From NCBI GenBank assembly GCA_030141605.1, contig JAQGDQ010001170.1, forward strand, positions 1-57,632: a stretch of DNA of 57,632 nt, given 5' to 3'. Both the position numbers and the translations under genes were made by a program. The notes beneath the pieces were generated by a model that was not told the origin of the DNA, ran no database searches, and saw only the letters and a list, made by a program, of their open reading frames with translations. Positions 1,007 through 50,738 of the stretch are shown in pieces; the first letter of the stretch is position 1, and every line of letters begins with the position of its first letter. The DNA comes from Tubiluchus corallicola. Taxonomy: Eukaryota; Animalia; Priapulida.

Positions 1007-3454
1007 ATGGAAAAGATCAAGGAACTGATTTGCAGTTTGCCTGACTCAAGTGGAAAATCAGAACTCATGTCGTTATTAACTGGTTACCTAACTGCTAATT
1101 TTGATGCGAATAGAACGCAATTGCTGAACAAGATGATGCATGCTGCAACGCGCTTTAACATGCCCGAGCTTGTTGAGCAATTACTCAACAAGGGGGCAGA
1201 AATAGAAAGTTTATCACAAATTACTAAAAAAGAATCAGATCCAGATTTCAGAACTCGTGAATATGAAGGAGGAACGCCGCTAGAAACTGCATGTTGTTTG
1301 GGACACGCTTCTGTTGTTCAGATACTCATCGAACGTGGTGCTGAAGTAAGCTGCCTTACAAGAAGCAATGGATGGTCGGCTTTAGGATTAGCTGCTAAAA
1401 TGGGCAAAGCAGATATTTGTGAAATGCTATTAGTTCACGGTGCAGAAGTTGATGGTATCCCAGAAATGTATAAAGTACGACCTATAATGCATGCAGCATG
1501 GGAGGGCCACATTGAAGTAGTGAAGTTGTTAATGAAATATGGTGCCAAAATTGATGAATGTCGTCACGTTGCAGTCAGTGGACATCCGCCCCTACATGCT
1601 GCGGCAAGCCAAGGACATTTTGGAATAATCGTTTTTCTGCTTCGCAAAGGTGCAAATGTTTTTTACATAGACGACTTACTTGGTAATACTGCTCTGCATT
1701 GGGCAGTGTGGGAAGGACATCTTCACCCAGCAGCCCTTTTACTTTTTGCAGGCTCTGACATTCTGGCAGAAAATGATAATGGTGATACACCACTTTCTAT
1801 GGCATGTATTAAAGGTAGACAGGATGTTCTTGAACTATTATATGAAAACATGCTAGAAAGATATTCAGACAAAGTAGTGCTGCAGGTACTAAATAAAGTT
1901 TATGCTGGAGGAAACAGTTTAATTCATCTGGCTTGTCAAAATGCTCACATGTCAGCTGAAAGTGCAGAGATTGTTAAATTCCTTATTGACGTAGGTGTTC
2001 AAACAGAATTAAGAAATGACTCCCATGAAACGGCTTATGATATGTGCATCCATCGAGCTTACAGAAAAGCATTGAACCGAAATTACAAACAAAATGCAGG
2101 TCTTTTCCTTACATATCGGTACTTTAAAATGTGGCAAGACCAACCTTCAAAGTTTTGTGTCACAGAAGATGACGAGACTACGGCAAAAAACATTCATGAT
2201 GGATTGACGCTGAAGGAGTTGGTTGGTATACCAGGGTTAGGAGCAGTTTCAAATATGACTGAATTTAACGGAATTAGAAGCAAAATAACTGAACTGTTAA
2301 ATGCCGTCAGCAGATTTCTTGAGAAATATTATCACATAAGATGTAAGCCTATTCTTGTTGGGAGTTCAGCATGTGGAGTGAAAATTGGTTACCCAGATGA
2401 GTTTGATTTTTTCATAGTGGTACAACAACACAAGGATTTTGCGGTAGATTATTTCGTCAAAAACCATTCATTGCCTGTTGTCACAAAATTAAAGGAGACG
2501 TTTTTCCATTATTTGTGTGAAGCCATGGCAATAGTTTTGCAAGAAAAGAAATTCAAAGAAATAATTGTGCCAAACTTCTTTCCGCATGTTGTGGAATGGA
2601 ATAAAGTCTGCATGTGCTTTAAATTATGTATTTTGCTGCCAAGCAAAAATTTAACACAAATTTCCATAGATGTGACGCCATGTTTTGAAAAACTGGGAAA
2701 ACCAATGAATGCCAGCGATAAATGGCCAAAATATGTCAACAGTTATCACTACGTGCTCAAACCGTACAAGAGAAAACTTGAACCCACATTTGCTGTTCTT
2801 GAATGCACCTTTATAGAGAACTTCGACGACAGTCGCAAGATGGTGATGATACTCGCAAAGTTGCTAGTAAAATCTGTCGTTTACAGTTGCAACAAAGAAC
2901 TGCATTTGTATCCTAATCACGTGTCTTCGACAGTCCACAACAAGCTGGTCAGTGCAGATGTCGACTTGCCAGAACTTTACAGAGCAATAAAGTATCAACC
3001 GGATAAAATGATAGACTCGTACATGATAAAAGTGGCCTTCTTGCACGAAGTGATAACCAATAAAGATGACTGGGGCACAGAAAACTTAAAAGCTCGAGCT
3101 GTATCGATATTCCAGTACATTGGACACTGTTGCAGAATACGCGAAATGTTTCACCCGCTGCTAAATGATGTCAATATCTTAGAAGATCTAAAATCTAAAG
3201 AAATGAGTGGCGTTTCATTGTTAGCATTGGCCGAAGATTCAGCACGGGCTATAGCCTGCAAGTTAGCTGATGATGCCATACCATCGAAGAAAGGTCTAAT
3301 GGAGCCAGATTTTGATAAATACCATGATGAGTTAAAGAAGCATGTACTAGATCGGACGGAAGGAACGTGGAGTAAAGCAGAAATTTCTAGAGTTAGTTTT
3401 TATTTAAGAAACGTTTGGGATTGGGCAAAACAAAGTGACATACAGCTGTATTAG
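1007..3454 (+). CDS. Ankyrin-repeat cGAS-like receptor (ANK + Mab-21/cGAS-family nucleotidyltransferase), single coding exon
   Basis: ATG at 1007 is in good context (ggtATGG) with in-frame stops upstream at 890 and 902. About 8 ankyrin repeats (GGTPLETACCLGH, GWSALGLAAKMGK, GHPPLHAAASQGH, GNTALHWAVWEGH, GDTPLSMACIKGR, GNSLIHLAC). The C-terminal half has ILVGSSACGVKIGYPDEFDF (nt 2351-2410), ISIDVTP (D at 2669), SYMIKVAFLH and DDW...HPLLNDVNILE. These match the order of the cGAS motifs GS..E.VKI..PNEFD, ISVDIT, SYHVKTAF and W...YFIPEFNLF. Confidence 0.92.
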   Translation: MEKIKELICSLPDSSGKSELMSLLTGYLTANFDANRTQLLNKMMHAATRFNMPELVEQLLNKGAEIESLSQITKKESDPDFRTREYEGGTPLETACCLGHASVVQILIERGAEVSCLTRSNGWSALGLAAKMGKADICEMLLVHGAEVDGIPEMYKVRPIMHAAWEGHIEVVKLLMKYGAKIDECRHVAVSGHPPLHAAASQGHFGIIVFLLRKGANVFYIDDLLGNTALHWAVWEGHLHPAALLLFAGSDILAENDNGDTPLSMACIKGRQDVLELLYENMLERYSDKVVLQVLNKVYAGGNSLIHLACQNAHMSAESAEIVKFLIDVGVQTELRNDSHETAYDMCIHRAYRKALNRNYKQNAGLFLTYRYFKMWQDQPSKFCVTEDDETTAKNIHDGLTLKELVGIPGLGAVSNMTEFNGIRSKITELLNAVSRFLEKYYHIRCKPILVGSSACGVKIGYPDEFDFFIVVQQHKDFAVDYFVKNHSLPVVTKLKETFFHYLCEAMAIVLQEKKFKEIIVPNFFPHVVEWNKVCMCFKLCILLPSKNLTQISIDVTPCFEKLGKPMNASDKWPKYVNSYHYVLKPYKRKLEPTFAVLECTFIENFDDSRKMVMILAKLLVKSVVYSCNKELHLYPNHVSSTVHNKLVSADVDLPELYRAIKYQPDKMIDSYMIKVAFLHEVITNKDDWGTENLKARAVSIFQYIGHCCRIREMFHPLLNDVNILEDLKSKEMSGVSLLALAEDSARAIACKLADDAIPSKKGLMEPDFDKYHDELKKHVLDRTEGTWSKAEISRVSFYLRNVWDWAKQSDIQLY

Positions 3455-3782
3455 TAGAAAGTGCAAAATCAGTTTGTCTGTTTAAAATCTATCAATTTTA
3501 GAACGAACATAAGAACATTCGTTCTAAACACACAATGTAATATGTAAAAATATCACATTTTATCTGTGTGAAATACGAAATTAAATTGTCTATAGTAGTA
3601 GTTGTACATTTTGATTGTCATTAAGATCAACAAGATTACATGTACATTTACAACAAGTCAAAATTTAAGATCCATAATAAGGTTCATATAGCAGTAAAAA
3701 AATCAAGATCAATCTTACAATAATATTACAATCAAGATCAATAATACAAGATTAATCTTGTTCGCAAGTGAAACAACTTTAA

Positions 3783-4472
3783 TGGTGAGTTACTGCTGGT
3801 GAGAGGAATTGCATGCTCTCCGACAGTTGCTGCGAATTGATTTACTGTCTAGTGCGAGTGCATCAGCGAGTTACTCTCGACACTTCTGGCAGTGAATAGA
3901 GAAGTGAGTGTCAGCTTGCACTTACCGTTGGAGAGTAACTCGCAGTAAGTTTTGTTCTCTAGTCTGAACGTGCTTGTGGCAGGTTTACTTGGTGAGAAAA
4001 TTCGCTAGTCTGAACACGCCACCATAATTATTTTAATTTTGTTTCCAGGTAAACTTGCCAAGTAACTCACAAGCATGTTCACACTAGAGAACAAAACTTG
4101 CTGCGAGTTACTTTCCGAGAGTAAGCAAGAGCTGACACTCACTTCTCTATTCACTGCGAAAAGTGTCGAGAGTAACTCGCCGAGGCGTTCACACTGGACA
4201 GTAACTAGTAAGCGTGTTCAGACTAGAGAACAAAACTTGCTGCGAGTTACTTTCCGAGAGTAAGCAAGTGCTGACACTCACTTCTCTATTCACTGCGAGA
4301 AGTGTCGAGAGTAACTCGCCGAGGCATTCACGCTAGACAGTAAATCAACTCGTAGCAACTGTCGGAGAGTTTGGTATTCCTTTCCGACATTAACTCGTAA
4401 AGGAGCTCACACTCGCGAGTTTGCCTTCAGAGAGAAAACTCGCGACACAAAACTCGCTAGTCTGAACGCGTG
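3783..4472. mobile_element. Two fragments of a Harbinger-like non-autonomous element in opposite orientation
   Basis: 3819-3975 is the reverse complement of ~4070-4200 and ~4210-4366; the right arm carries a ~140-bp tandem duplication. The ends resemble CTAGTCTGAACRCGC. The same family is seen at ~44140-44345. Confidence 0.65.
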
Positions 4473-5422
4473 TTAGTACTAGGCAAATCAACGTCCGTCA
4501 ACACGGTGACTCCTACTCCATCAACTCAGTTAAACGGGCATTAATAATTGTCGAAATATGATATAAATTATTCATCGAAACTAACTCGTACGCAACTTGT
4601 GCAAACAGTAACAAAAATGCGGGTTCTTCTAGCACCAAACCGTCTCAGTGACAATGCAGATCTGACCCCTCCGTCCAGGTGTCCAATGCAGATCTGACCC
4701 CTGCGTCCAGGTGCGCACGCCGCATGTCCACTCAAATCTCTCTTTCGTACTTCATAACTTCAACACAGTACATGCGTTATTGTAGCAATTTAGTTGCCGT
4801 AACTGTTATCAGCTACACCCCTTGCTTAGGTCAGCCCCTTACGGATCATTGTGAAGCCAAGAAAGTAAAACGCTTTTGTTTGCCAAGTACTCATGGTCTC
4901 GTTGAGGTTGATTACTGTGATGTTTATTCTAACCTGTTTGTTATTTTTAAGCCGGACTGAACGTTTCCCTTCTAGCTGCTTATATAACAAGCATTTTAAG
5001 TTAAAATCCTAGAAGACCCTTCTCTTTGGAATTTTTACGCCCGGGCATAAATAACAAACGTCTTTGTGCCGCTTGCCAGACCGTTTTTCTGCATAACTGT
5101 AAGACAGATAGACTTGTTTTCTTCGCGGCCAGGCATCTTAAAACGGTTTTTGTGTTTGCGAACGCGCAGTTTTTCTGCGTGTTGTTGAGAGATTTAAACT
5201 GGAAGGCACGTGGAGGTAGTTGCAATATGAAGAGAGTGAAGGAATTTTCCTGTAAATCATCCCTGTTTGTAAAACAGGAGATTATACGCGTCAGATAAGA
5301 ACAAGTAAGACAATATGAATGATGAGGTGCGTGGAGTGGCGCATTTCGAGTGGAGGTGGTATTTTTGTTATATTAGTGAGATTATTTATTTATTTGTTTA
5401 TTTATTTGTTTACTTTATTTAA

Positions 5423-5942
5423 AGGATGATTGTGCGAACATTAATTTAGAATAAAGAATGCTCTAAAATGTTGAAAACTACAATAGCTTATTTTAAATCA
5501 AAGCTTATACTAAATACTAATTACCTCGGATATTCAAATTTCGTTAAACTTTCAAAGTTACGCTCGGCTCAGTGAATCTGCTAAGATTGGCAGCGGCGCC
5601 TTTTTGTCACGTTCGCGTGGTAACCGTGATAAGCATGATCATTTACTGCTGTGTTAGTTTCTGACGTCATATGATGTAGAGCCCATTTTTCGTGACATCA
5701 TGCGTTCAAACAGTAGCACTTACGCAAATGTGCCTGACATACAAGGGAAGATACCTGCCATTGCACAAACTGTGGCTAGTTTCTGACGTAAGCAATAGCT
5801 GTGTTCGGTTGCCGTTAATTAACTTTCTAAGCTAATTATTCAAATACAAGGAACAATTGTTTAACTTTTATAGGCAAGAAAATGTATATTTTGGACAATA
5901 AATTAAAATGAGATAGAGTCTAAACAATCGTCCGGTCTTCCT
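5423..5942 (-). mobile_element. TTAA-flanked Kolobok/T2-like MITE, family A copy 1
   Basis: TTAA|AGGATGATTGT ... ACAATCGTCCGGTCTTCCT|TTAA. It is the reverse-complement homolog of 6686-7212 and 38725-39264. Confidence 0.75.
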
Positions 5943-6685
5943 TTAAAGTTTATTTAAGCACCCAAGAAATGTCATATTTACACTGCATGTCATGTACTAT
6001 TAAAAGAGGTACCAAATTTTTTTAAAAGTATAAAAATATGTACAGAATTTAAAAATGCAAAGCATCAGTTAACGGACAAGCGGTTACTGCATCGTGTCAT
6101 CTTCTACATATTCTACTATAAAATCGTACGTCAGTTTGGTGGCGTATATGATTTACGATATAATTTGCAGAGCCAATTATTGTTGTTCTTAAAGGAAGAC
6201 AGAGCGATTTTTCATATACTAGCGATTCAGTGTGTTGTAATAAAATTCGGCAAGTTCAAAATAAAGATTCAAATTTCAAATTTACCGCTGTACTCGCGCG
6301 TGAGCTGTCGAATGTGTGCAGTTCGTCACAAACTAACACGTGTCTGAGACGTACAGCAACTGTTTTTTGTGCGGCACCTGTTTTTTGACCTACAGTTTAA
6401 CATTGGTTCCAGTGTTGCTTTTAAAAGAACTATAGGCAGAGTGACGCAACAGAAAAATGCTGTATATTGTTTTCTCCACATGTTGTTTTGCAGGCTCTAA
6501 TTACTGAGCTATATTTTTGTTTTTATTTTCTCTTCAACTTGAAAAAATGCGTAAGATTTTAACGCATGCGCTGTACACTGTACAGTATTTAATGTGACAT
6601 ACAAACTATTCAAAGTATTCAAAGTGTGCATGGTAGAAAAACCATCTACCTAAAGAGAATGTGTTGAACATAGGGGGCTAATTAA

Positions 6686-7212
6686 AGGAAGGCCGGATGA
6701 TTGTTTAGACTCAATCTCATTTTATTTCACTGTTCAAAATATACATTTTCTTGCCTATCAAAGTAACTAAGAATAATTAGCTTAGAAAGTTAATTAACGG
6801 CAACCGAGCACAGCTATTGCTTACGTCAGAAACTAACCACAGTTTATGTAATGGTAGGAATCGTATCTTGCGCGTCAAGCACGTTTGCGTAAGTGTTACT
6901 GTTGAAACGCGTGATGTCACGAAAATGCGCTCTACGTCATTTGACGTCAGAAACTAACACTGCAGTTTATGATCATGGTTATCACGGTACCGCCTTCTAT
7001 TTAACGGCCACGCGAACATGACAAAACGGCGCCGCTGCCAGTCTTAGTAGATTCACCGAGCCGCGCGTAGCTTTGAAAGCTTAACGAAATTTGAGTACCC
7101 GAGGTAATTATTATTTAATCTAAGCTTTGATTTAAAAAAGCTATTGTAGTTTGCAATATTTTAGAGCATTCTTTATTCTAGACTAATGTTTACACAATCA
7201 TCCGGTTTTCCT
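6686..7212 (+). mobile_element. TTAA-flanked Kolobok/T2-like MITE, family A copy 2
   Basis: TTAA|AGGAAGGCCGGATGATTGT ... ACAATCATCCGGTTTTCCT|TTAC, with ~19-bp TIRs and AGG...CCT termini. Confidence 0.8.
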
Positions 7213-8639: not shown

Positions 8640-8875
8640 TTATTTGAAGTTTAAACACTTACGCAAACGTGCTTGTTGCGCAAGGGAAGACGTCTGCTAT
8701 TGCTCAAATTGTGGTCAGTTTCTGACGTAAGCAATAGCTGCGCTCGGTTGGCGTTAATTAACTTTCTAAGCTAATTATTCAAATATGAGGAACAATTGTT
8801 AAGTTTTATAAGCAAGAAAATGTATATTTTGGACAGTAAATCAAAATGAGATTGACTCTAAACAATCGTCCGGTC
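8640..8875 (-). mobile_element. Partial family A MITE (one end)
   Basis: Matches ~5715-5937 (CACTTACGCAAA...TTCTGACGTAAGCAATAGCTG...AAACAATCGTCCGGTC). Confidence 0.75.
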
Positions 8876-11370: not shown

Positions 11371-11824
11371 CCGTATTTTCCCGTGTATAAGAGACCCTTG
11401 TGTATAAGAGACCCCTTCAATTTTTAGGCAAAAATTCTGGAAAAAAGTTTTTTCAGACGGACATTTTTAGAGGGTAGAGTACAACTTTTTTCAACTCAGT
11501 GCGGTACTGAAAACAAAATAAAACCAGTTAATGTGTTGTAGAAAAAGAGTACTGGTATATATTAAAGTGCGTACCTGCAAACCTGTAACAGGAAAAGAGA
11601 AAACGAGTAGATAATGCCTGTGTCACGATGCTTGTATTGCTTACAACCGCTTCATAGTCGAACGCGACACGCAAAACAGTTGTAGAGCACTTATTTCTTT
11701 AAAATCATTAGTGTCACAATTTATGCATCTTATTGAAAAGACTTACTCCCATGTATAAGAGACCCCCTATTTTTAAAGTGAAAATTCTGAGCAAAAAAGG
11801 GTCTCTTATACACGGGAAAATACG
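11371..11824 (+). mobile_element. Tc1/mariner (Tc2/pogo-like) MITE, copy 1
   Basis: TA|CCGTATTTTCCCGTGTATAAGAGACCC ... GGGTCTCTTATACACGGGAAAATACG|TA. Nearly identical to 50301-50738. Confidence 0.85.
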
Positions 11825-13279: not shown

Positions 13280-14085
13280 TGGCGCGTTCAGACGTAGAGA
13301 CTTCTCTCGTAACCTGTTGTACATCTTCTCTCTGTGAGCAAAGTGACTCGTGTCAACTTCTCTCGCTACTCATTGCGCAAGTTGACTCTCGGCAACTCTC
13401 CCCGAGTTGTTGCGATTGTTGCGAGAGAAGTTGCTAAATAAGTTGCGAGAGAAGTTGCCAAGCCGTTCACACGTGTGGCTTTACTCTCAGAGAGAAGTTG
13501 CCAAGCCGTTCACACGTGTGGCTTTACTCTCAGAGAGAAGTTGCCAAGCCGTTCACACGTGTGGCTTTACTCTCAGAGAGAAGTTGCCAAGCCGTTCACA
13601 CGTGTGGCTTTACTCTCAGAGAGAAGTTGGGTTGTGGGTTTTGGGGGCCGCCGTTCACACGTGTGGCTTTACTTCAGAGAGAAGTTGCCTGCCGTTCACA
13701 CGTGTGGCTTTACTCTAGAGAGAAGTTGCCAAGCCGTTCACACGTGTGGCTTTACTCTCAGGAGAAGTTGCCAAGCCGTTCACACGTGTGGCTTTACTTC
13801 AGAGGTTACGAGTGTTGCGAGAGAAGTTGCCAGCCGTTCACACGTGTGGCTTTACTCTCAGAGAGAAGTTGCCAAGCCGTTCACACGTGTGGCTTTACTC
13901 TCAGAGAGAAGTTGCCAAGCCGTTCACACGTGTGGCTTTACTCTCAGAGAGAAGTTGCCAAGCCGTTCACACGTGTGGCTTTACTCTCAGAGAGAAGTTG
14001 CCAAGCCGTTCACACGTGTGGCTTTACTCTCAGAGAGAAGTTACGCAGTAAGTTGCGAGAGAAGTCTCAACGTCTGAACGCGCAA
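13280..14085. mobile_element. PIF/Harbinger-like MITE carrying an internal tandem array
   Basis: TAA|TGGCGCGTTCAGACGTAGAGACTTCTCTCGTAAC ... GTTGCGAGAGAAGTCTCAACGTCTGAACGCGCAA|TAA, i.e. a ~34-bp TIR and a TAA target duplication. Confidence 0.75.
13447..14042. repeat. 43-bp minisatellite, 13 copies
   Basis: Unit GAGAGAAGTTGCCAAGCCGTTCACACGTGTGGCTTTACTCTCA; CACACGTGTG was counted 13 times. A few central units are irregular. Confidence 0.95.
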
Positions 14086-14836: not shown

Positions 14837-15374
14837 AAGGCACAAATCCCCATTCTGTATGTCTTAGCAAGTTTAAAGGAAAGACCAAGCCTTCTGGAAA
14901 GTTAAACTTATTCTAATATTTCGTGAAAAATGTTAGAAGGATTTAATATAATTTTGTGATAAGTACTTTACTAAAATGAATTAACGAATTAGTATTTAAA
15001 ATCACTTTAATGTCCGAGCATTTCTAAATAACTATGGAAGTTTTTGCTGAATCAAAGTGGTTTATTTATGATATTGCAGCAATGATCAGGCTGAAATCAC
15101 AACAACAAAATAATTACATATAATACTGCCATACCGCATAGAGCGTAAGTGCAAATATAAATGTTTCGAATTATACTCATTTAAGAATTGTTCCTTTAAT
15201 CACAAAAGTAAAACTGCATATAATATACCGTTCCAAATATTAAACATCTGCTTGACACAGCATTAAGTTCTTATTTTTAAATGTGTTAAAAATTGCCTCC
15301 TGCAAACAGCAATATGGGTACTCTTCATAAACTTTTGTTTATATGTTAATAAAATTCATTTAGTTTTACATAAT

Positions 15375-15980
15375 TCAGACTTAACACAATATGCCGATGA
15401 TACAACTATCTATACAGCACACGCAGACTTTCTAACATCAAAAAATAATCTAGAAAAAGACATAACAAATATAAATGCAGCATTTAACTATTTTGGTTTA
15501 AAAATGAATGATGATAAGACAGAATTTATGGTAATATCACCCAAATCCAATGACATTACTTCTAATGCAACACTAAAAGTAGGTGACTGTTCCATAGAAC
15601 AAGCAAAAACAGTAAAATTTTTAGGCATTACTGTCGATAGTAAACTCACTTGGGATGAACGGTTTCATCAAATACACAACAAGATGGCATTAAGCACGAA
15701 ATTCTTACACCAAACCAGAGGCCATCTGACCAAGAAAACAAAAATTCTCATCTACAAAAGTCTAATATTACCACATTATCTGTATGGTTGCACTTTACTT
15801 CAAAACGTTAAATATGAAAACTTTAGAAAACTAAATACAATGCAAAACTAAGCACTTAGATTAATTCATGGCTATTCTAACAAAACTGCTAAACAACATG
15901 CTGCATCTGCCGACAAGCTTAAGAACGTCCACAAAAATACCAATATTAGAAGCCTATCGAGATTACAAAGCACTGATATT
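15375..15980 (+). mobile_element. LINE reverse-transcriptase fragment (CR1/L2/Jockey group), disrupted
   Basis: In frame with ORF 15504: LTQYADDTTIY...LKMNDDKTEFMVI...VKFLGITVDSKLTW...LIYKSLILPHYLYG...MQN*ALRLI. It has the YADD motif and a premature stop. Confidence 0.85.
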
Positions 15981-16164: not shown

Positions 16165-16633
16165 TAGCTAATTTTGTGATATTTTACATGAACAATAGCT
16201 AATTTTGTGATTTTTTTACATGAACACTAGCTAATTTTGTGATTTTTTACATGAACACTAGCTAATTTTGTGATATTTTACATGAACACTAGCTAATTTT
16301 GTGATATTTTACATGAACACTAGCTAATTTTGTGATATTTTACATGAACACTAGCTAATTTTGTGATTTTTTTACATGAACACTAGCTAATTTTGTGATT
16401 TTTTACATGAACACTAGCTAATTTTGTGATATTTTACATGAACACTAGCTAATTTTGTGATATTTTACATGAACACTAGCTAATTTTGTGATATTTTACA
16501 TGAACACTAGCTAATTTTGTGATATTTTACATGAACACTAGCTAATTTTGTGATATTTTACATGAACACTAGCTAATTTTGTGATATTTTACATGAACAC
16601 TAGCTAATTTTGTGATATTTTACATGAACACTA
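16165..16633. repeat. 31-bp minisatellite, ~15 copies, inside a TTAA-flanked MITE
   Basis: Unit TAGCTAATTTTGTGATATTTTACATGAACAC. The host element ends ...GACCTTTCCT|TTAA at ~16884. Confidence 0.95.
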
Positions 16634-19803: not shown

Positions 19804-20056
19804 TACACGTGTTACGTTACCATGCCTACACGTGTTACGTTACCATGCCTACACGTGTTACGTTACCATGCCTACACGTGTTACGTTACCATGCCTACAC
19901 GTGTTACGTTACCATGCCTACACGTGTTACGTTACCATGCCTACACGTGTTACGTTACCATGCCTACACGTGTTACGTTACCATGCCTACACGTGTTACG
20001 TTACCATGCCTACACGTGTTACGTTACCATGCCTACACGTGTTACGTTACCATGCC
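19804..20056. repeat. 23-bp minisatellite, 11 perfect copies
   Basis: Unit TACACGTGTTACGTTACCATGCC. Confidence 0.95.
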
Positions 20057-21812: not shown

Positions 21813-22242
21813 AACAGTCTTTAGCCAACCTATCTAAAATGATTTAACTAATAATAAATCTTGGTCGCACTAGTACACATGTGGGAAGGTGATATTCATC
21901 TAAGTAATTGAAGCAATGTGACGACGACGACGGTGGTGATGATGATGTTTATTTCATGCGCGTTAAAGTAGTCATATTGAACTGTACGACCTTTAAGTAT
22001 GCTTACCAGCTATTTTTAACAAATTTGTCAGTAATTATCTTTCGGGAGACAAACAGACAAAGGTGATGTATGTGATAAGTAAGTGCCAAAGGTTCTCATT
22101 AGAACTGTATCTTATTCGTTTTGTCATTTAGCAAAGTTGCAAGTCCACCATCTATAGTAACTGCATATATAATGTAAACTGTGTTTGTAATGTATGGTAG
22201 CTTGTTAGGGACATGGTAAAAACAAAAACGTAAATTTATTAA

Positions 22243-22835
22243 CTCGAAATTTCGACTTACTAATTCAAAATTTCGAGTTACTAAGTCGATATTGCGAGGT
22301 ACTAAGTCGATATTGCGAGTTTCTAAATCGATATTGCGAGGTACTAAGTCGATATTGCGAGGTACTAAGTCGATATTGTGAGGTACTAAGTCGATATTGC
22401 GAGTTTCTAAGTCGATATTGCGAGTTACTAAGTCGATATTGCGAGATACTGAATCGATATTGCGAGATACTGAATCGATATTGCGAGGTACTGAATCGAT
22501 ATTGCGAGGTACTAAGTCGATATTGCGAGTTTCTAAGTCGATATTGCGAGTTTCTAAGTCGATATTGCGAGTTTCTAAGTCGATATTGCGAGTTTCTAAG
22601 TCGATATTGCGAGTTACTAAGTCGATATTGCGAGATACTGAATCGATATTGCGAGATACTGAATCGATATTGCGAGGTACTGAATCGATATTGCGAGGTA
22701 CTGAATCGATATTGCGAGGTCCTAAGTCGATATTGCGAGTTTCTAAGTCGATATTGCGAGTTTCTAAGTCGATATTGCGAGTTACTAAGTCGATATTGCG
22801 AGATGCTGAATCGATATTGCGAGGTACTAAGTCGA
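22243..22835. repeat. 21-bp minisatellite, ~28 copies with higher-order variant pattern
   Basis: Unit CTAAGTCGATATTGCGAGGTA with variants (CTGAATCG; GTTT/GTTA/GATA/GGTA). Confidence 0.93.
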
Positions 22836-22866
22836 AATTTATTTTTTATCTATTTTCGTATCATTC

Positions 22867-22967: not shown

Positions 22968-23285
22968 AAAGTACCTATTTTATAAAAAAAGTTGGCATAA
23001 AAAAATAAAACTATACATTACTCCAGATGAACATATAAATTGCATTTCAAAAATTTTGTGCATGATTAGAGAAATGGTCACTCGTGTATGATTTGCATGA
23101 GTTGCTGTGACTTTCTTGGTTCCATACTCGTTCAAGTTGATTTCGTTAGCCCTACCGTTTCTGGCTGTTTACCTAGTAAAATGACAATGTATTCACACGT
23201 TTAGTGGTTCAGCAGGAGTAGCTTTCAATCAGGCTCCGATTATGTCAAAGACACGGGCATCTTTTGACATCAGGGATATAGGATT

Positions 23286-24236
23286 TTGTAGTGAGTAGGT
23301 TGGAGAAAATTCTTTGTGGTGAGTAGGCTGGAGAAAGTACTTTGTAGTGAATAGGTTGGAGAAAGTTCTTTGTAGTGAGTAGGTTGAAAGTTCTTTCTGG
23401 TGAGTAGGTTGGAGAAAGTTCTTTGTAGTGAGTAGGTTGGAGAAAGTTCTTTGTAGTGAGTAGGTTGGAGAAAGTTCTTTGTAGTGAGTAGGTTGGAGAA
23501 GATTCTTTGTAGTGAGCAGGTTGGAGAAAGTTCTTTGTAGTGAGTAGGCTGGAGAAAGTTCTTTGTAGTGAGTAGGTTGGAGAAAGTTCTTTGTGGTGAG
23601 TAGGCTGGAGAAAGTTCTTTGTAGTGAGCAGGTTAGAGAAAGTGCTTTGTAGTGAGTAGGTTGGAGAAGATTCTTTGTAGTAAGTAGTTGGAGACAGTTC
23701 TTTGTAGTGAGTAGGTTGGAGAAAGTTCTTTGCGGTGAGTAGGCTGGAGAAAATTCTTTGTAGTGAGCAGGTTGGAGAAAGTTTTTTGTAGTGAGCAGGT
23801 TGGAGAAAGTTCTTTGTGGTGAGTAGGCTGGAGAAAATTCTTTGTAGTGAGCAGGTTGGAGAAGATTCTTTGTAGTGAGCAGGTTGGAGAAAGTTTTTTG
23901 TAGTGAGCTGGTTGGAGAAGATTCTTTGTAGTGAGCAGGTTGGAGAAGATTCTTTGTAGTGAGCAGGTTGGAGAAAGTTTTTTGTAGTGAGCAGGTTGGA
24001 GAAAGTTCTTTGTGGTGAGTAGGCTGGAGAAAATTCTTTGTATTGAGTAGGCTGGAGAAAGTTCTTTGTAGTGAGTAGGCTGGAGAAAGTTCTTTGTGGT
24101 GAGTAGGCTGGAGAAAGTTCTTTGTAATGAGTAGGTTGGAGAAAGTTCTTTGTGGTGAGTAGGCTGGAGAAAGTTCTTTGTGGTGAGTAGGCTGGAGAAA
24201 GTTCTTTGTAATGAGTAGGTTGGAGAAAGTTCTTTT
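23286..24236. repeat. 28-bp minisatellite, ~34 copies
   Basis: Unit GTGAGTAGGTTGGAGAAAGTTCTTTGTA. It gives the 28-aa periodic ORFs on the - strand. Confidence 0.95.
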
Positions 24237-33300: not shown

Positions 33301-33487
33301 GACATTCTTTATAACCTGGAACGCTGCTTGTGTGAACTATAAAGTCACCCTGCATCCAAAAAAACTCATTTTTCTCAAATTTGGTGTCTCCGCATACTGT
33401 CGCCCTGAAATCCCCATGTCTTCGGCTCTATGAAAATACCTATTCATGCTGTTACTTGGTCAGTAACTCTGTTCACCTATATTGGAG

Positions 33488-33789
33488 TGTATGTTCGAAT
33501 GTATGTGTATGTTTGAATGTATGTGTATGTTCGAATGTATGTGTATGTTCGAATGTATGTGTATGTTTGAATGTATGTGTATGTTTGAATGCATGTGTAT
33601 GTTCGAATGTATGTGTATGTTTGAATGCATGTGTATGTTCGAATGTATGTGTATGTTTGAATGTATGTGTATGTTTGAATGTATGTGTATGTTCGAATGT
33701 ATGTGTATGTTCGAATGTATGTGTATGTTCGAATGTATGTGTATGTTCGAATGTATGTGTATGTTTGAATGTATGTGTATGTTCGAATG
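33488..33789. repeat. 18-bp minisatellite, ~17 copies
   Basis: Unit TGTATGTTYGAATGTATG. Confidence 0.95.
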
Positions 33790-35363
33790 CCACATTTTGC
33801 TGTTTTCTGCTTGCTTAAAGGAAAAGTCAAGCTTTCTGGGAAATTAGGATCGTCTCAATGTTCGCGAAAAGTGTTCGAAAGATTTAATAATAAAAGCGCC
33901 TCATGTAATAAGTAAAATAACTTTGTAGTTTACGTCTTTCTTAGTATTTAACAGGCACATGTAAGAATGGTACTTCTCTTTGTGTCTCCCTCGCACCCTC
34001 CCTTATCATTGTATTTTTTAGTTGTTGTTTATATTATTGATTTAGTCTTATCCATGTTGAGCATAGCTCATAAGTTAATTTCTTCTGCTGCGCTCATAGC
34101 ACTGTAATGCACTGTTAATTAGTAATTTTATAACTTTTATTCTTGTATGTCCTAAATGGACGAATAAATAAATCTAACTAAATAAAATCCGAATGTTGCT
34201 TTTTATGCGTGTACATATTTCAATGTGCATTGCACGTTTTTATGTGCGGTATATGGTTTTATGTGTATATGTATGTATATTTTAATGTACATGTATATTG
34301 ATTACTTTTTATTTGGTGTATAATAAACTAAACTAAACTAAACTAAAGGGCGCCCCCATTTTGAATGTTCATTCTTCCACCAATGACGTCGTTGATCAAC
34401 TGAGGTAAAGCAGTGCACTGGTAGCTTTTATCAAAGTTTAATAAGCTTTTACAAAAAATGAGATTTTTTAATGTTTTTAAAACGAACACTAGATAAGCTG
34501 TGAACATTCACAGAAGTTTCATTTCGCTTGAACAGCGCACCCTTGCTGAAAGCCACAATGCGCTTACGGAAAATCACGACGAAGTCCACCAGTTACGTCA
34601 TCATTTTCAAGCGAATGGCGGCTACCACCGTGTTTGGAAATCATACCCCATTTTGAAGTACGGTAAAAAATTTGCATTTTATTACACCTATAATAATGCC
34701 ATAGCATTAAGGTTAACTAAATAATAGGATAAAACCTTGAATAACAGCGGACAAACGCAACTAGTGATGATATCACAAACGAACAAAATTTCCAGCAGCT
34801 CAAACATTCCACGAGCATGTTGCACATGTTTACGAAAGCGAAAATTGAAGTACAGTGCTACTGTAGAACATTCAGCGTGATATATAAAAACTTGGCACTG
34901 CTGAATTCATGCATTAGCTGTTAAACGTGTACACTGCATCACAACTGAACATCTGAGCATCACTGTTCATCACAACTGAACATGCATTGAGAGGTACAAC
35001 CCTGTTTCTTCTGCAAAGTGTTTGTGACATGCAGAAACTAGAGCCTGGTCTAATGAGCAAATGGCAAAATACATGGAACAGCGAATAACCACCTTGCAAA
35101 CGCAAAATTAGGTTTCTGTGGTAATAAATCCTTCACATAAGTCATTTCCTTTCAATATCTTATAGATTAGATTGTTTTGAGCTACAGCTTAATATTGTGT
35201 ACGGTTTTCCTTTAACCGATAAGAGTAAAAGAAACCCAACATGCTAAGTGGGTTGTGCTTTCCTTTAATACCCCGTGTGATGTCTATTTTCTTCGATTAT
35301 TAGAACCCAAGTGTTGATTCTTGTTTTCATTTATTGCAGAGCTGACATGTGCAAGTGAAAGAA

Positions 35364-36839
35364 ATGCTGAAGCCGTACTCACTAGAGGACGGCACGCCTA
35401 ATCGATTTAGGAATGCTTCATACTATAAGATGGGTGAGGGTGGTGACATGATGTCCAAACATGCGCAAGACAATGGCTTCCTTTCAATTCCGGAGGTGGT
35501 GGTGACCGGTTCCGGTCCGCCGTCTCCGTGTGTGACGGAATCCACCGCCGAGACGGAGATCAGCGAGAAGACGCCGCCACCGTCACAGAAACGCAACCGT
35601 TACGTCTACGGCAAACGCGAGAAGTTGCATCGACGACGAATCGTTCAGAAAAGCGGGACGTTAAACGTGGCCGTGGCTAATGTCGACAACCACACTAGGC
35701 AATACATCGCCGACTTCTTCACGACTTTGGTCGATCTAAAATGGCGATGGACGATCGGAATATTTGCCATGGGATTTTTGATAAGCTGGTTGTCTTTTGC
35801 GGTCATCTGGTGGCTTATATGCTATGCACACGGCGACTTTGACCACTTCGGCGATAACGACTGGACGCCTTGTGTCCGAGAACAGATGTCTTTTGCGTCA
35901 TCATTTCTGTTCTCCTTAGAAACGCAGCACACTATAGGTTACGGTTCTAGGCACATTACGGAGGAGTGTCCAGAAGCAATACTGACTTTGATAATGCAAA
36001 GCATTACCGGGGTGCTGATCCAGTGTTTTGTGGTGGGTATGGTGTTTAGCAAAGTCTCTCGACCAAAGAAACGAGCTCAGACGTTAATGTTCAGCCGCAA
36101 CGCTGTAATATGTAAGCGTGATAATAAACTGTGTCTTTTATTCCGTGTCGGAGATATGAGAAGATCTCAAATACTAGAGGCTCACGTTCGCGTCATTGTC
36201 ATCAAAAAGAAGGTGACGGAGGAAGGTGAAGTTATTCCGCTGCACAGGTACGACTTGAACGTGGGATTCGACACTGGTTTGGATCGGATCTTTATGATCT
36301 GGCCTGTGACCGTGACGCACGTGATTGATGAAGACAGTCCGTTTTACGAAATGACGGCCGACGACTTTGAAAACCAAAAGTTCGAGATAGTCGTGATTTT
36401 AGAGGGCATCATCGAGTCGACTGGCATGACCACGCAAGCCAGGTCGTCGTACCTCAACGGCGAAGTTCTGTGGGGGTACAGGTTTCAACGTCTGGTCACA
36501 TTCCAACGGGAGGATGGCTTGTACAGAATTGACTACTCACGCTTTCACAATACGATACCAGTTGAAACTCCCAATCTTAGCGCACAGCAGTTGGACGAAC
36601 TGAAAGCCCGAGGTCGTCGATCGGGTCTGTCACCTCTAGCTCCGGTTAACCTGTCCGGTTCGCGGGTGTTGCTTTTCGATCCGGACGACACGGAGCTGAT
36701 CACGCCAGGCAGTGATCGACGCAGGTCAGAAGATGATGAAGAAGACGAACTAGAGGAAATGAACGTTCGGAACAATAACGACTTTAATGCCGCCGGTGAT
36801 GCATTACGGCATTTTAACGTTTTGACTGATATGCGATGA
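35364..36839 (+). CDS. Inward-rectifier potassium channel (Kir / Irk family), single coding exon, 491 aa
   Basis: DFFTTLVDLKWRW slide helix, TM1, selectivity filter FLFSLETQHTIGYG (TIGYG at 35931), TEECP, TM2, KVSRPKKRAQTLMFS PIP2 motif, FEIVVILEG and SSYLNGEVLWGYRF. Acceptor TTTATTGCAG ends at 35339, and an in-frame TGA at 35343 precedes ATG 35364. Confidence 0.96.
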   Translation: MLKPYSLEDGTPNRFRNASYYKMGEGGDMMSKHAQDNGFLSIPEVVVTGSGPPSPCVTESTAETEISEKTPPPSQKRNRYVYGKREKLHRRRIVQKSGTLNVAVANVDNHTRQYIADFFTTLVDLKWRWTIGIFAMGFLISWLSFAVIWWLICYAHGDFDHFGDNDWTPCVREQMSFASSFLFSLETQHTIGYGSRHITEECPEAILTLIMQSITGVLIQCFVVGMVFSKVSRPKKRAQTLMFSRNAVICKRDNKLCLLFRVGDMRRSQILEAHVRVIVIKKKVTEEGEVIPLHRYDLNVGFDTGLDRIFMIWPVTVTHVIDEDSPFYEMTADDFENQKFEIVVILEGIIESTGMTTQARSSYLNGEVLWGYRFQRLVTFQREDGLYRIDYSRFHNTIPVETPNLSAQQLDELKARGRRSGLSPLAPVNLSGSRVLLFDPDDTELITPGSDRRRSEDDEEDELEEMNVRNNNDFNAAGDALRHFNVLTDMR

Positions 36840-38387: not shown

Positions 38388-38724
38388 TACTGATTTGCCA
38401 AAATAAAATGTGTTAATAAACAGTGCCTACAAGCAGTGCAGTACAAAATGATGTGCCTCACCTTGTAAATAAACATCCGAAAGTTTATGCAAGTTATGTA
38501 AATTTGCTTCGACACGGTTATCACAGCTGTTTTTACCGTGTATGTAATTTTTGATACGATTATTTTTCTACGAGTCGTTGTGATATGTATATACGAGAAT
38601 CGACAATAGGCGTAGTTGATGAATTTTTCTTTGCATGTCTGTAAACGGGCCCGAACGGCCCCGAGGTGCATTAGTTGTAATTGTTAATTTGAATTTGAAT
38701 GGTTTCCATTTTCTACGAACATAA

Positions 38725-39264
38725 AGGAAGACCGGACGATTGCTTAGACTCAAAATCATTTTTATTTACTGTCCGAAATATACATTTTCTTGCCTATAAA
38801 AGTTACCAATTGTTCCTCATATTTGAATAATTAGCTTAGAAAGTTAATTAACGGCAACCAAACGCAGCTATTGCTTACATCAGAAACTAACCACAGTTTG
38901 TGCAATGGCGAGTGTCTTCCCTTGCGCGTCAAACGCATTTGGGTAAGTGTTAGTGCTTAAATGCGTGATGTCATGAAAATGGGCTCCACGTCATATGACG
39001 TCAGAAACTAACATTGCAGTTCATGATCATGCTTATCACGGTACCGTCTTCTATTTGTTGGTCAAGCGAATGTGACAAAAAGGGACCGTTGCCAAACTTA
39101 GTAGGTTCACTGAGCCGGGCGTAGCTTTGAAAGTTTAACGAAATTTGAGTATCCGAGGTAATTATTATTTAACCCTAGCTTTGATTTTAAAAAAGCTATT
39201 GTAGTTTTCAATATTTTAGAGAAATCTTTATTCTGAACTAATGTCTACACAATCGTCCGTTTCT
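38725..39264 (+). mobile_element. TTAA-type Kolobok/T2-like MITE, family A copy 3
   Basis: Collinear with 6686-7212 (AGGAAGACCGGACGATTG ... ACAATCGTCCG). Confidence 0.8.
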
Positions 39265-43917: not shown

Positions 43918-44515
43918 CTGAAAGAAAAAAATTTGCATAAAAAAATTCAGAAGTCCAGCCATTAAAACGAGACACAATGCTTTTAATACAGCTCTCGGTG
44001 CTATCCTGTGGGGAAAGAATACGGATATAAAACTAATGGCACATTCATACTAGTATGACAGCAAACTCGCAAGTGTGAACTGCTTTGCGAGTTAGATTTG
44101 GCATTTCTAGCAGAGGACAGAGAAGGGAATGGCAGGTTATGTTTACTGTAGGAGAGCAACTCGCAGCAAGTTTTGTTTCTAGTCTGAACACGCTTGTGAG
44201 TTACTCTCGACAGTTCTCACAGCGAATAGAGAACTGAGTGTTAACTCATGCTTACTGTAGGAGAGTAACTCGCAGCAAGATTTGCTTTCTAGTCTGAACA
44301 CGCTTGTGAATTACTTGGTGACAAAACTCACAAGTCTGAACACACCGCGCTACCAGACAACAGGGGGTACCTGTTAACTTTCAATATGGATTGGGAGAGG
44401 CTGTAGTTAACAGGGAAGAACTTTTCCCATAAGTTTTGCATTTAGGAAAGAAAGGCAGTTGCAGTTACACACAGTCAAACAAATAAAAATTATACATCAG
44501 TACGAAGTCTTGGTA

Positions 44516-50300: not shown

Positions 50301-50738
50301 CCGTATTTTCCCGTGTATAAGAGACCCCTTCAATTTTTAGGCAAAAATTCTGGAAAAAAGTTTTTTCAGACGGACATTTTTAGAGGGTAAAGTACAACTT
50401 TTTTCAACTCAGTGCGGTACTGAAAACAAAATAAAACCAGTTAATGTGTTGTAGAAAAAGAGTACTGGTATATATTAAAGTGCGTACCTGCAAACCTGTA
50501 ACAGGAAAAGAGAAAACGAGGAGATAATGCCTGTGTCACGATGCTTGTATTGCTTACAACCGCTTCATAGTCGAACGCGACACGCAAAACAGTTGTAGAG
50601 CACTTATTTCTTTAAAATCATTAGTGTCACAATTTATGCATCTTATTGAAAAGACTTACTCCCATGTATAAGAGACCCCCTATTTTTAAAGTGAAAATTC
50701 TGAGCAAAAAAGGGTCTCTTATACACGGGAAAATACGG
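50301..50738 (+). mobile_element. Tc1/mariner (Tc2/pogo-like) MITE, copy 2
   Basis: TA|CCGTATTTTCCCGTGTATAAGAGACCC ... GGGTCTCTTATACACGGGAAAATACGG|TA, a perfect 27-bp TIR. It appears nested in an older hAT-like element (~50103-50994). Confidence 0.9.

Follow-up and report, generated by a model that had tools for sequence, protein, structure and literature searches.

The locus at hand poses a question in a compact form: does a single open reading frame that places ankyrin repeats ahead of a cGAS-like domain encode a working cGAS-like receptor (cGLR), and, if so, what would the ankyrins do for the enzyme? Such receptors carry out two-metal nucleotidyl transfer with a triad of acidic residues and signal to STING. 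The frame lies in a 57,632-nt stretch of DNA from the priapulid Tubiluchus corallicola, all of which was analysed (hereafter the window). Our answer to the first half is that the protein is an additional ANK-cGLR, i.e. a member of a class that is already catalogued, and that it is probably active. The second half can be answered in graded terms.

The gene, its domains and its surroundings

The gene is intronless and runs without a frame break from ATG to TAG. The features of the protein and of the window are collected in Table 1.

Table 1. Features of the ANK-cGLR gene and of the surrounding window (residues counted from the ATG).
Feature	Position	Strand	Basis or remark
ORF, ANK-cGLR, 815 aa	1007..3454	+	ATG in GGTATGG context; P0002 begins homologously
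N-terminal helices ahead of repeat 1, residues 1-39	1007..1123	+	common to P0002 only
Ankyrin array, residues ~40-335, 7 scored repeats and a degenerate eighth, acidic (pI 5.5)	1124..2011	+	Pfam, own repeat HMM, model
Two-helix cap, residues 340-378, array-to-core joint; G365 invariant in 11/11	2024..2140	+	subfamily conservation, model
cGAS/cGLR core, residues 401-761; spine helix ~417-442	2207..3289	+	profile, Foldseek, VIA-align
Activation-loop motif G452-S453 (LVGS)	2360..2365	+	sequence, subfamily alignment
E465-F-D467, catalytic acids 1 and 2	2399..2407	+	sequence, subfamily and wider alignment
WNKVC loop, residues 531-535, subfamily-invariant; GGTAV in Sp-cGLR1 at the same place	2597..2611	+	alignments
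D555, catalytic acid 3	2669..2671	+	sequence, subfamily and wider alignment
SYMIK helix (SYxxK); Mab-21_C match begins here	3017..3031	+	Pfam, sequence
C-terminal extension, two helices, outside cGAS-aligned core	3290..3451	+	model, VIA-align
ATTAAA, candidate poly(A) signal	3580..3585	+	consensus match only
Palindromic repeat just 3' of the gene	3801..4470		175-nt inverted arms, 139-nt tandem pair
Dispersed repeat family	5421..5945, 6682..7207, 8654..8875, 38722..39262		~540 bp, ~84% identity
425-bp pair	11400..11824, 50313..50737		99.5% identical; recent dispersed repeat or duplication
Minisatellite arrays	13447..14042, 16165..16633, 19804..20056, 22236..22839, 23285..24235, 33487..33789		periods 18-43
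Reverse transcriptase fragment	15267..15851	+	RVT_1 E 6.5e-9
Inward-rectifier potassium channel ORF, uninterrupted	35346..36839	+	IRK E 3.7e-55, IRK_C 9e-73

The ATG start is supported by the relative P0002, which has a homologous N-terminus at its own start. A GTG at position 989 opens a track of 821 aa, so that earlier residue numbers are higher by 6. The catalytic residues of the original prediction are therefore all present, under shifted numbers: G458-S459, E471, D473 and D561 become G452-S453, E465, D467 and D555. The SYxxK helix, also noticed at the time, is SYMIK at residues 671-675.

Two of the three Pfam families expected in the protein scored above their cut-offs, namely Ank_2 (E 9.9e-53; Ank matches seven stretches) and Mab-21_C (31.1 bits, cut-off 24.1), whereas the Mab-21 NTase model remained under its cut-off when applied to this protein alone (12.2 bits). 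A purpose-built repeat HMM scores seven ankyrin repeats between residues 44 and 281 and had no match among 151 shuffled proteins; repeats were counted with its iterated version, as the first one undercounted (33/151). With the degenerate eighth helix pair that the structure model places at residues 305-328, this agrees with the roughly eight repeats first reported. The linker of about 90 residues described between array and enzyme is more than a loose spacer: it contains two confidently predicted helices (residues 343-378) that the subfamily conserves.

The core model (residues 340-815, built on 47 sequences) has a pLDDT of 89.7 and a pTM of 0.91; a first full-length fold from 3 sequences had a poor core (pTM 0.48) and was used for the ankyrin helices only. 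Beyond the part that aligns with cGAS, the model predicts a two-helix extension at residues 762-815 (helices ~769-814), and the high pTM suggests that these helices, like those at 343-378, pack on the enzyme core. The best Foldseek match of the core model is Cv-cGLR1 (8gjw, E 1.1e-9), with cGAS structures next, and VIA-align superposes the model on mouse cGAS (7v0w) over 288 residues (Z 23.6, rmsd 2.9; residues 401-761 covered). The match to the cGAS and cGLR1 fold anticipated from the sequence was thus recovered by both programs. Searching solved structures with the single sequence was marginal (Sp-cGLR1, E 0.055); with the profile of alignment A4, Sp-cGLR1 was matched at an E of 6.8e-50 across positions 41-385, a span that takes in both the NTase core and the bundle of C-terminal helices. 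The three acids of the triad fall on model strands 126-136 and 210-224, the strand placement seen in cGAS.

Li et al. 2023 (PMC9980059), in the sections available, recognize a cGLR by a G[S/G] activation loop and an [E/D]h[E/D]-X50-90-[E/D] triad. The window protein has G452-S453, E465-F-D467 and D555, D467 and D555 being separated by 87 residues, and ankyrin repeats and cGLR domain share one chain as in the ANK-fused architecture. The main text of the same source gives a stricter form, h[QT]GS. Here the protein reads LVGS, not [QT]GS, but so do the Priapulus caudatus proteins that Li et al. list, hence the [QT] letter is not exclusive in practice. Assignment to the MAB21L1/L2 developmental branch was ruled out, since the triad is intact and the profile search places MAB21L1 (5eog) after cGAS and cGLR1.

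The window itself is repeat-rich animal DNA. The palindromic element next to the gene looks like a MITE-type repeat; it reaches a very high summed depth in sequencing run X1, and the window has a related copy around 44072-44346. The reverse transcriptase fragment is likely a non-LTR retroelement remnant. The minisatellite arrays account for most of the long stop-free frames in the window, and the long ORFs at 13438, 19461, 22209 and 23245 were ruled out as genes because they overlap tandem repeats. The potassium channel ORF has its highest identity, among 7 matches, to a GIRK3-like protein of P. caudatus (71% over 77%).

The window contains no further copy of ANK or cGLR type. In the DNA run X1, searched at 80% likeness to the ORF, we found 145 contigs, 117 of them less than 95% alike, and up to 10 distinct contigs share the same alternative letter at one position. 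Two long divergent contigs have depths of 185 and 196, against 200 for the self-matching ones, depth not being copy number, and some of the variants recur in run X2 from a second study. Among the sequencing runs listed as carrying the sequence there was no RNA run, an outcome that has no bearing on expression. The many relatives of 80-95% identity in run X1 likely represent a recent multi-copy family, i.e. a gene expansion. Such near-copies, together with the missing introns and the repeat-rich setting, would fit a decaying or unexpressed copy (a retrocopy or a pseudogene) or of an assembly chimera. We regard this as very improbable. The frame is open over 2448 bases, the same domain order is found in 10 relatives, and run X1 contigs cover nearly all of the ORF with 0-1 differences, two of them overlapping across 1919-1945. 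Moreover, silent changes are enriched among the near-copy differences: in the best-supported rows, which are a biased subset, 48 codons differ, 25 silently and 23 with a changed residue, and there are no stops. In the same subset the differences at the G452, A455 and K459 codons are all silent.

A subfamily with an invariant WNKVC loop

A word search returned two relatives (53% and 29% identity), each bearing ankyrins, and a search for longer proteins added nothing. A profile confined to the enzyme domain reached 247 proteins at E values up to 0.001. Pfam finds Ank_2 in all 20 top matches that were scanned (two fragments were skipped) and Mab-21 or Mab-21_C in 18 of these. Among the best 150 of the 247 matches, 73 carry at least two ankyrin repeats ahead of the enzyme domain, as against none of the shuffled controls. 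The fusion is old and has been retained, because a search confined to the enzyme domain returned mostly ankyrin-bearing relatives. An Atlas search started from the homologue P0014 yielded nothing beyond leads at 0.80, among them a cluster of 62 members with ANK and Mab-21-like domains. Two of the proteins are unusually long: P0022, named from Ruditapes philippinarum, and P0027 (2255 and 2287 aa) combine ankyrins, a MYND finger and one or more cGLR domains.

In a FastTree phylogeny of 134 out of 151 rows (17 were too short or lacked the GS region) the window protein lies within a group of 11 rows, all with ankyrins, with a support of 99. IQ-TREE recovered the same group from 28 chosen rows (96/93, in an unrooted tree with unsettled bootstrap). 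Four of the 11 members are named P. caudatus proteins, and one of these, XP_014668761.1, is a catalogued ANK-cGLR that keeps the WNKVC loop.

It is conspicuous that G452-S453, E465, D467 and D555 are invariant in all 11 members at only 26-51% identity. K459, WNKVC, K585, K618 and DSYxxK are invariant as well, and in the wider alignment 44-45 of the remaining 46 rows carry the triad. The number of ankyrin repeats varies from 3 to 15 per protein. In other words, the present analysis adds a tree-supported subfamily in which the WNKVC loop is invariant and the repeat number is not. Within the first 400 characters per cell of Table S1 of Li et al. (PMC9980059), WNKVC occurs in the two Priapulus rows only. 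A single origin of all ANK-cGLRs finds no support in the domain tree, where the ANK rows are scattered, with 29 label changes that are in part caused by fragments. The class probably does not form a single clade, the window gene belonging to its WNKVC branch.

The original prediction had supposed that such fusions might already appear in surveys, and they do. Li et al. 2023 (bioRxiv 10.1101/2023.02.22.529553, PMC9980059) name ANK-cGLRs as an architecture and catalogue many of them (legends of Fig. 1C, 4C and S2A; Table S2), the listed members including XP_014668761.1 of the same subfamily, and they propose protein-protein or protein-ligand roles for the class. The available Priapulus rows of their Table S1 hold two ANK-cGLRs and one Mab21L protein, and Table S5 gives 2 cGLRs and 5 STINGs for P. 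caudatus. Three further P. caudatus ANK-cGLRs with intact triads (P0016, P0017 and P0018; accessions XP_014670921.1, XP_014675828.1 and XP_014661479.1) are absent from those Table S1 rows. P. caudatus thus has at least five ANK-cGLRs, three more than catalogued. In the screen of the same study, Table S3 as available has no row under Priapulus, and six ankyrin motifs had no match in the first 400 characters of its cells, a search that would miss any construct reduced to the core. Four active enzymes checked in Table S2 have a Mab-21 domain only. A literature search, for which most subscription papers were out of reach, returned no report of an assayed ANK-cGLR.

Catalysis and the possible role of the ankyrin array

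The combined reading of the original prediction, ankyrins joined to a cGAS-like receptor with an intact triad, is backed by profile, tree and fold. From triad and fold the protein is likely a nucleotidyltransferase of the cGAS type, and we consider it fairly probable that the enzyme is active; in the published screen, however, many cGLRs showed no activity despite bearing the triad (PMC9980059). The pocket is less orthodox. The strand carrying R376 and S378 of human cGAS, which are named as cGAMP-binding in the accessible part of PMC10855445, is replaced by EPTFA (mapped by eye). In both the window protein and P0002, about 20 residues following D467 are missing, as is the W-x-x-S/C pocket strand found in relatives, and both have C456 at a place occupied by E or D in 36 out of 46 relatives. 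The gap, the missing strand and C456 could impair catalysis; the WNKVC loop, the gap and EPTFA point to a different product or a weaker activity. Because the R376/S378 strand reads EPTFA, the divergent nucleotide pocket may yield a product other than 2'3'-cGAMP.

Our preferred reading, which we hold tentatively and at a little under even chances, is that the protein makes a cyclic dinucleotide for STING-type signalling and is switched on when the array binds a protein or another non-nucleic-acid ligand. In this scheme the structured cap would couple array to core, the array would gate the enzyme, and the core, through its triad, would produce the messenger for an immune response; varied repeat numbers and gene duplication might then reflect varied ligands. 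Within it, synthesis of the dinucleotide is likely and ligand switching via the ankyrins is held with less certainty. We count in favour the invariant triad, the cGAS fold, the retained fusion, the variable repeats, the prediction of cap and core as one body, the silent near-copy changes, a junction of helix 1 and spine that is poor in basic residues, and the occurrence of 5 STING genes in P. caudatus, both of whose catalogued cGLRs are of this type. The borderline-basic core pI, the D467 gap, the pocket strand and C456 count against it. Between P0001 and P0002 the ankyrin region (130/249 identical) is no more divergent than the core (195/356), so that there is no sign of sensor-type diversification in this comparison.

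The charge data bear on another reading, namely that of an ordinary nucleic-acid-sensing cGLR which binds dsRNA or dsDNA on its spine face and uses the ankyrins only for localising the enzyme or recruiting partners. Ankyrins are general adaptors, which fits it. In the accessible portion of Li et al. (PMC9980059), 9 of 15 active cGLRs respond to dsDNA or dsRNA, and a pI above 8.5 is given as the range of nucleic-acid sensors. The core of the window protein sits at the edge of that range (pI 8.57) and its spine helix has a net charge of +2, which also agrees with such sensing. On the other hand, subfamily cores span pI 5.46-8.72 and 6 of 11 are under 8. Spine net charge, negative in 10 of the 11, was discarded as a criterion because the matching porcine cGAS segment is itself about neutral by eye. 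The helix-1/spine junction has 3 K/R in 30 residues against 8, by eye, in Sp-cGLR1, a weak argument as P0012 also has 8. We judge nucleic-acid sensing to be unlikely, if quite conceivable.

The deviating pocket strand and activation loop would also suit a mainly non-catalytic or non-cyclic-dinucleotide scaffold, which binds a kinase or an adaptor, or moves nucleotides to some other acceptor. There is a precedent in three shrimp Mab21 proteins that activate IKK-epsilon by binding, with no detectable cGAMP (PMC12928593); in the text available these are not described as ankyrin-bearing, and the strict conservation of the triad across the subfamily argues for metal-dependent chemistry. We find a scaffold doubtful.

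The preferred reading, i.e. ligand-gated synthesis, can be extended. The WNKVC ANK-cGLRs may form a growing, NLR-like repertoire of cyclic-nucleotide synthases that sense proteins, in which variable arrays would read pathogen or damage proteins and signal via the cap to a remodelled pocket, the messenger not being 2'3'-cGAMP. They might even be the main STING input in priapulids, since all five P. caudatus members seen carry ankyrins. We offer this as speculation, and consider it improbable as a whole.

Li et al. 2023 (PMC9980059, available text) name as an open question how cGLRs unresponsive to nucleic acids are activated, and ANK-cGLRs are obvious candidates for receptors with non-nucleic-acid triggers. 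The sequence finding alone contributes one member, the definition of a subfamily and a likely gene expansion. If true, a protein-triggered animal cGLR would extend the logic of cGAS-STING past nucleic-acid sensing. The window gene is a convenient test case: it has one ORF, an intact triad and a confident model, and domain swaps could draw on its many close relatives.

Comparison with characterised systems

A possible parallel for the array is RNase L, whose ankyrins bind a nucleotide messenger. Sp-cGLR1 (8gjy), Cv-cGLR1 (8gjw), Tc-cGLR (7lt2) and mouse and human cGAS share with the window protein the fold (Z 22-24, rmsd ~3), the triad and K459/K618/SYxxK. Nevertheless, their identity to it is only 13-18%, their structures are without ankyrin array, cap and C-terminal extension, and the R376/S378 positions of cGAS are not kept in our protein. 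The original statement that characterised members are triggered by nucleic acids was too strong, as Li et al. 2023 argue, in the part available, for non-nucleic-acid ligands of some cGLRs (PMC9980059). Shrimp LvMab21-1/2/3 are likewise invertebrate members of the Mab21 family for which a protein-based role in immunity has been proposed, but they are reported without cGAMP production and, in the available text, which has no match to 'ANK', not as ankyrin fusions (PMC12928593).

The closest likeness is to the ANK-cGLR class of Li et al. 2023, which in the available material likewise has N-terminal ankyrins and a cGLR domain with the G[S/G] and [E/D]h[E/D]-X50-90-[E/D] site. Its P. caudatus members XP_014668761.1 (P0014) and XP_014666123.1 (Tables S1, S2 and S4, PMC9980059) also show the ANK array, the conserved cap and the LVGS, PDEFDF, EWNKVC, D(V/I)TP and SY motifs. 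P0014 is 28.8% identical to the window protein over the core and falls into the same 11-row group. The window protein differs in lying outside the Priapulus-containing subgroup (100/100), in being about 20 residues shorter after D467 than most WNKVC members, and in its changed pocket strand.
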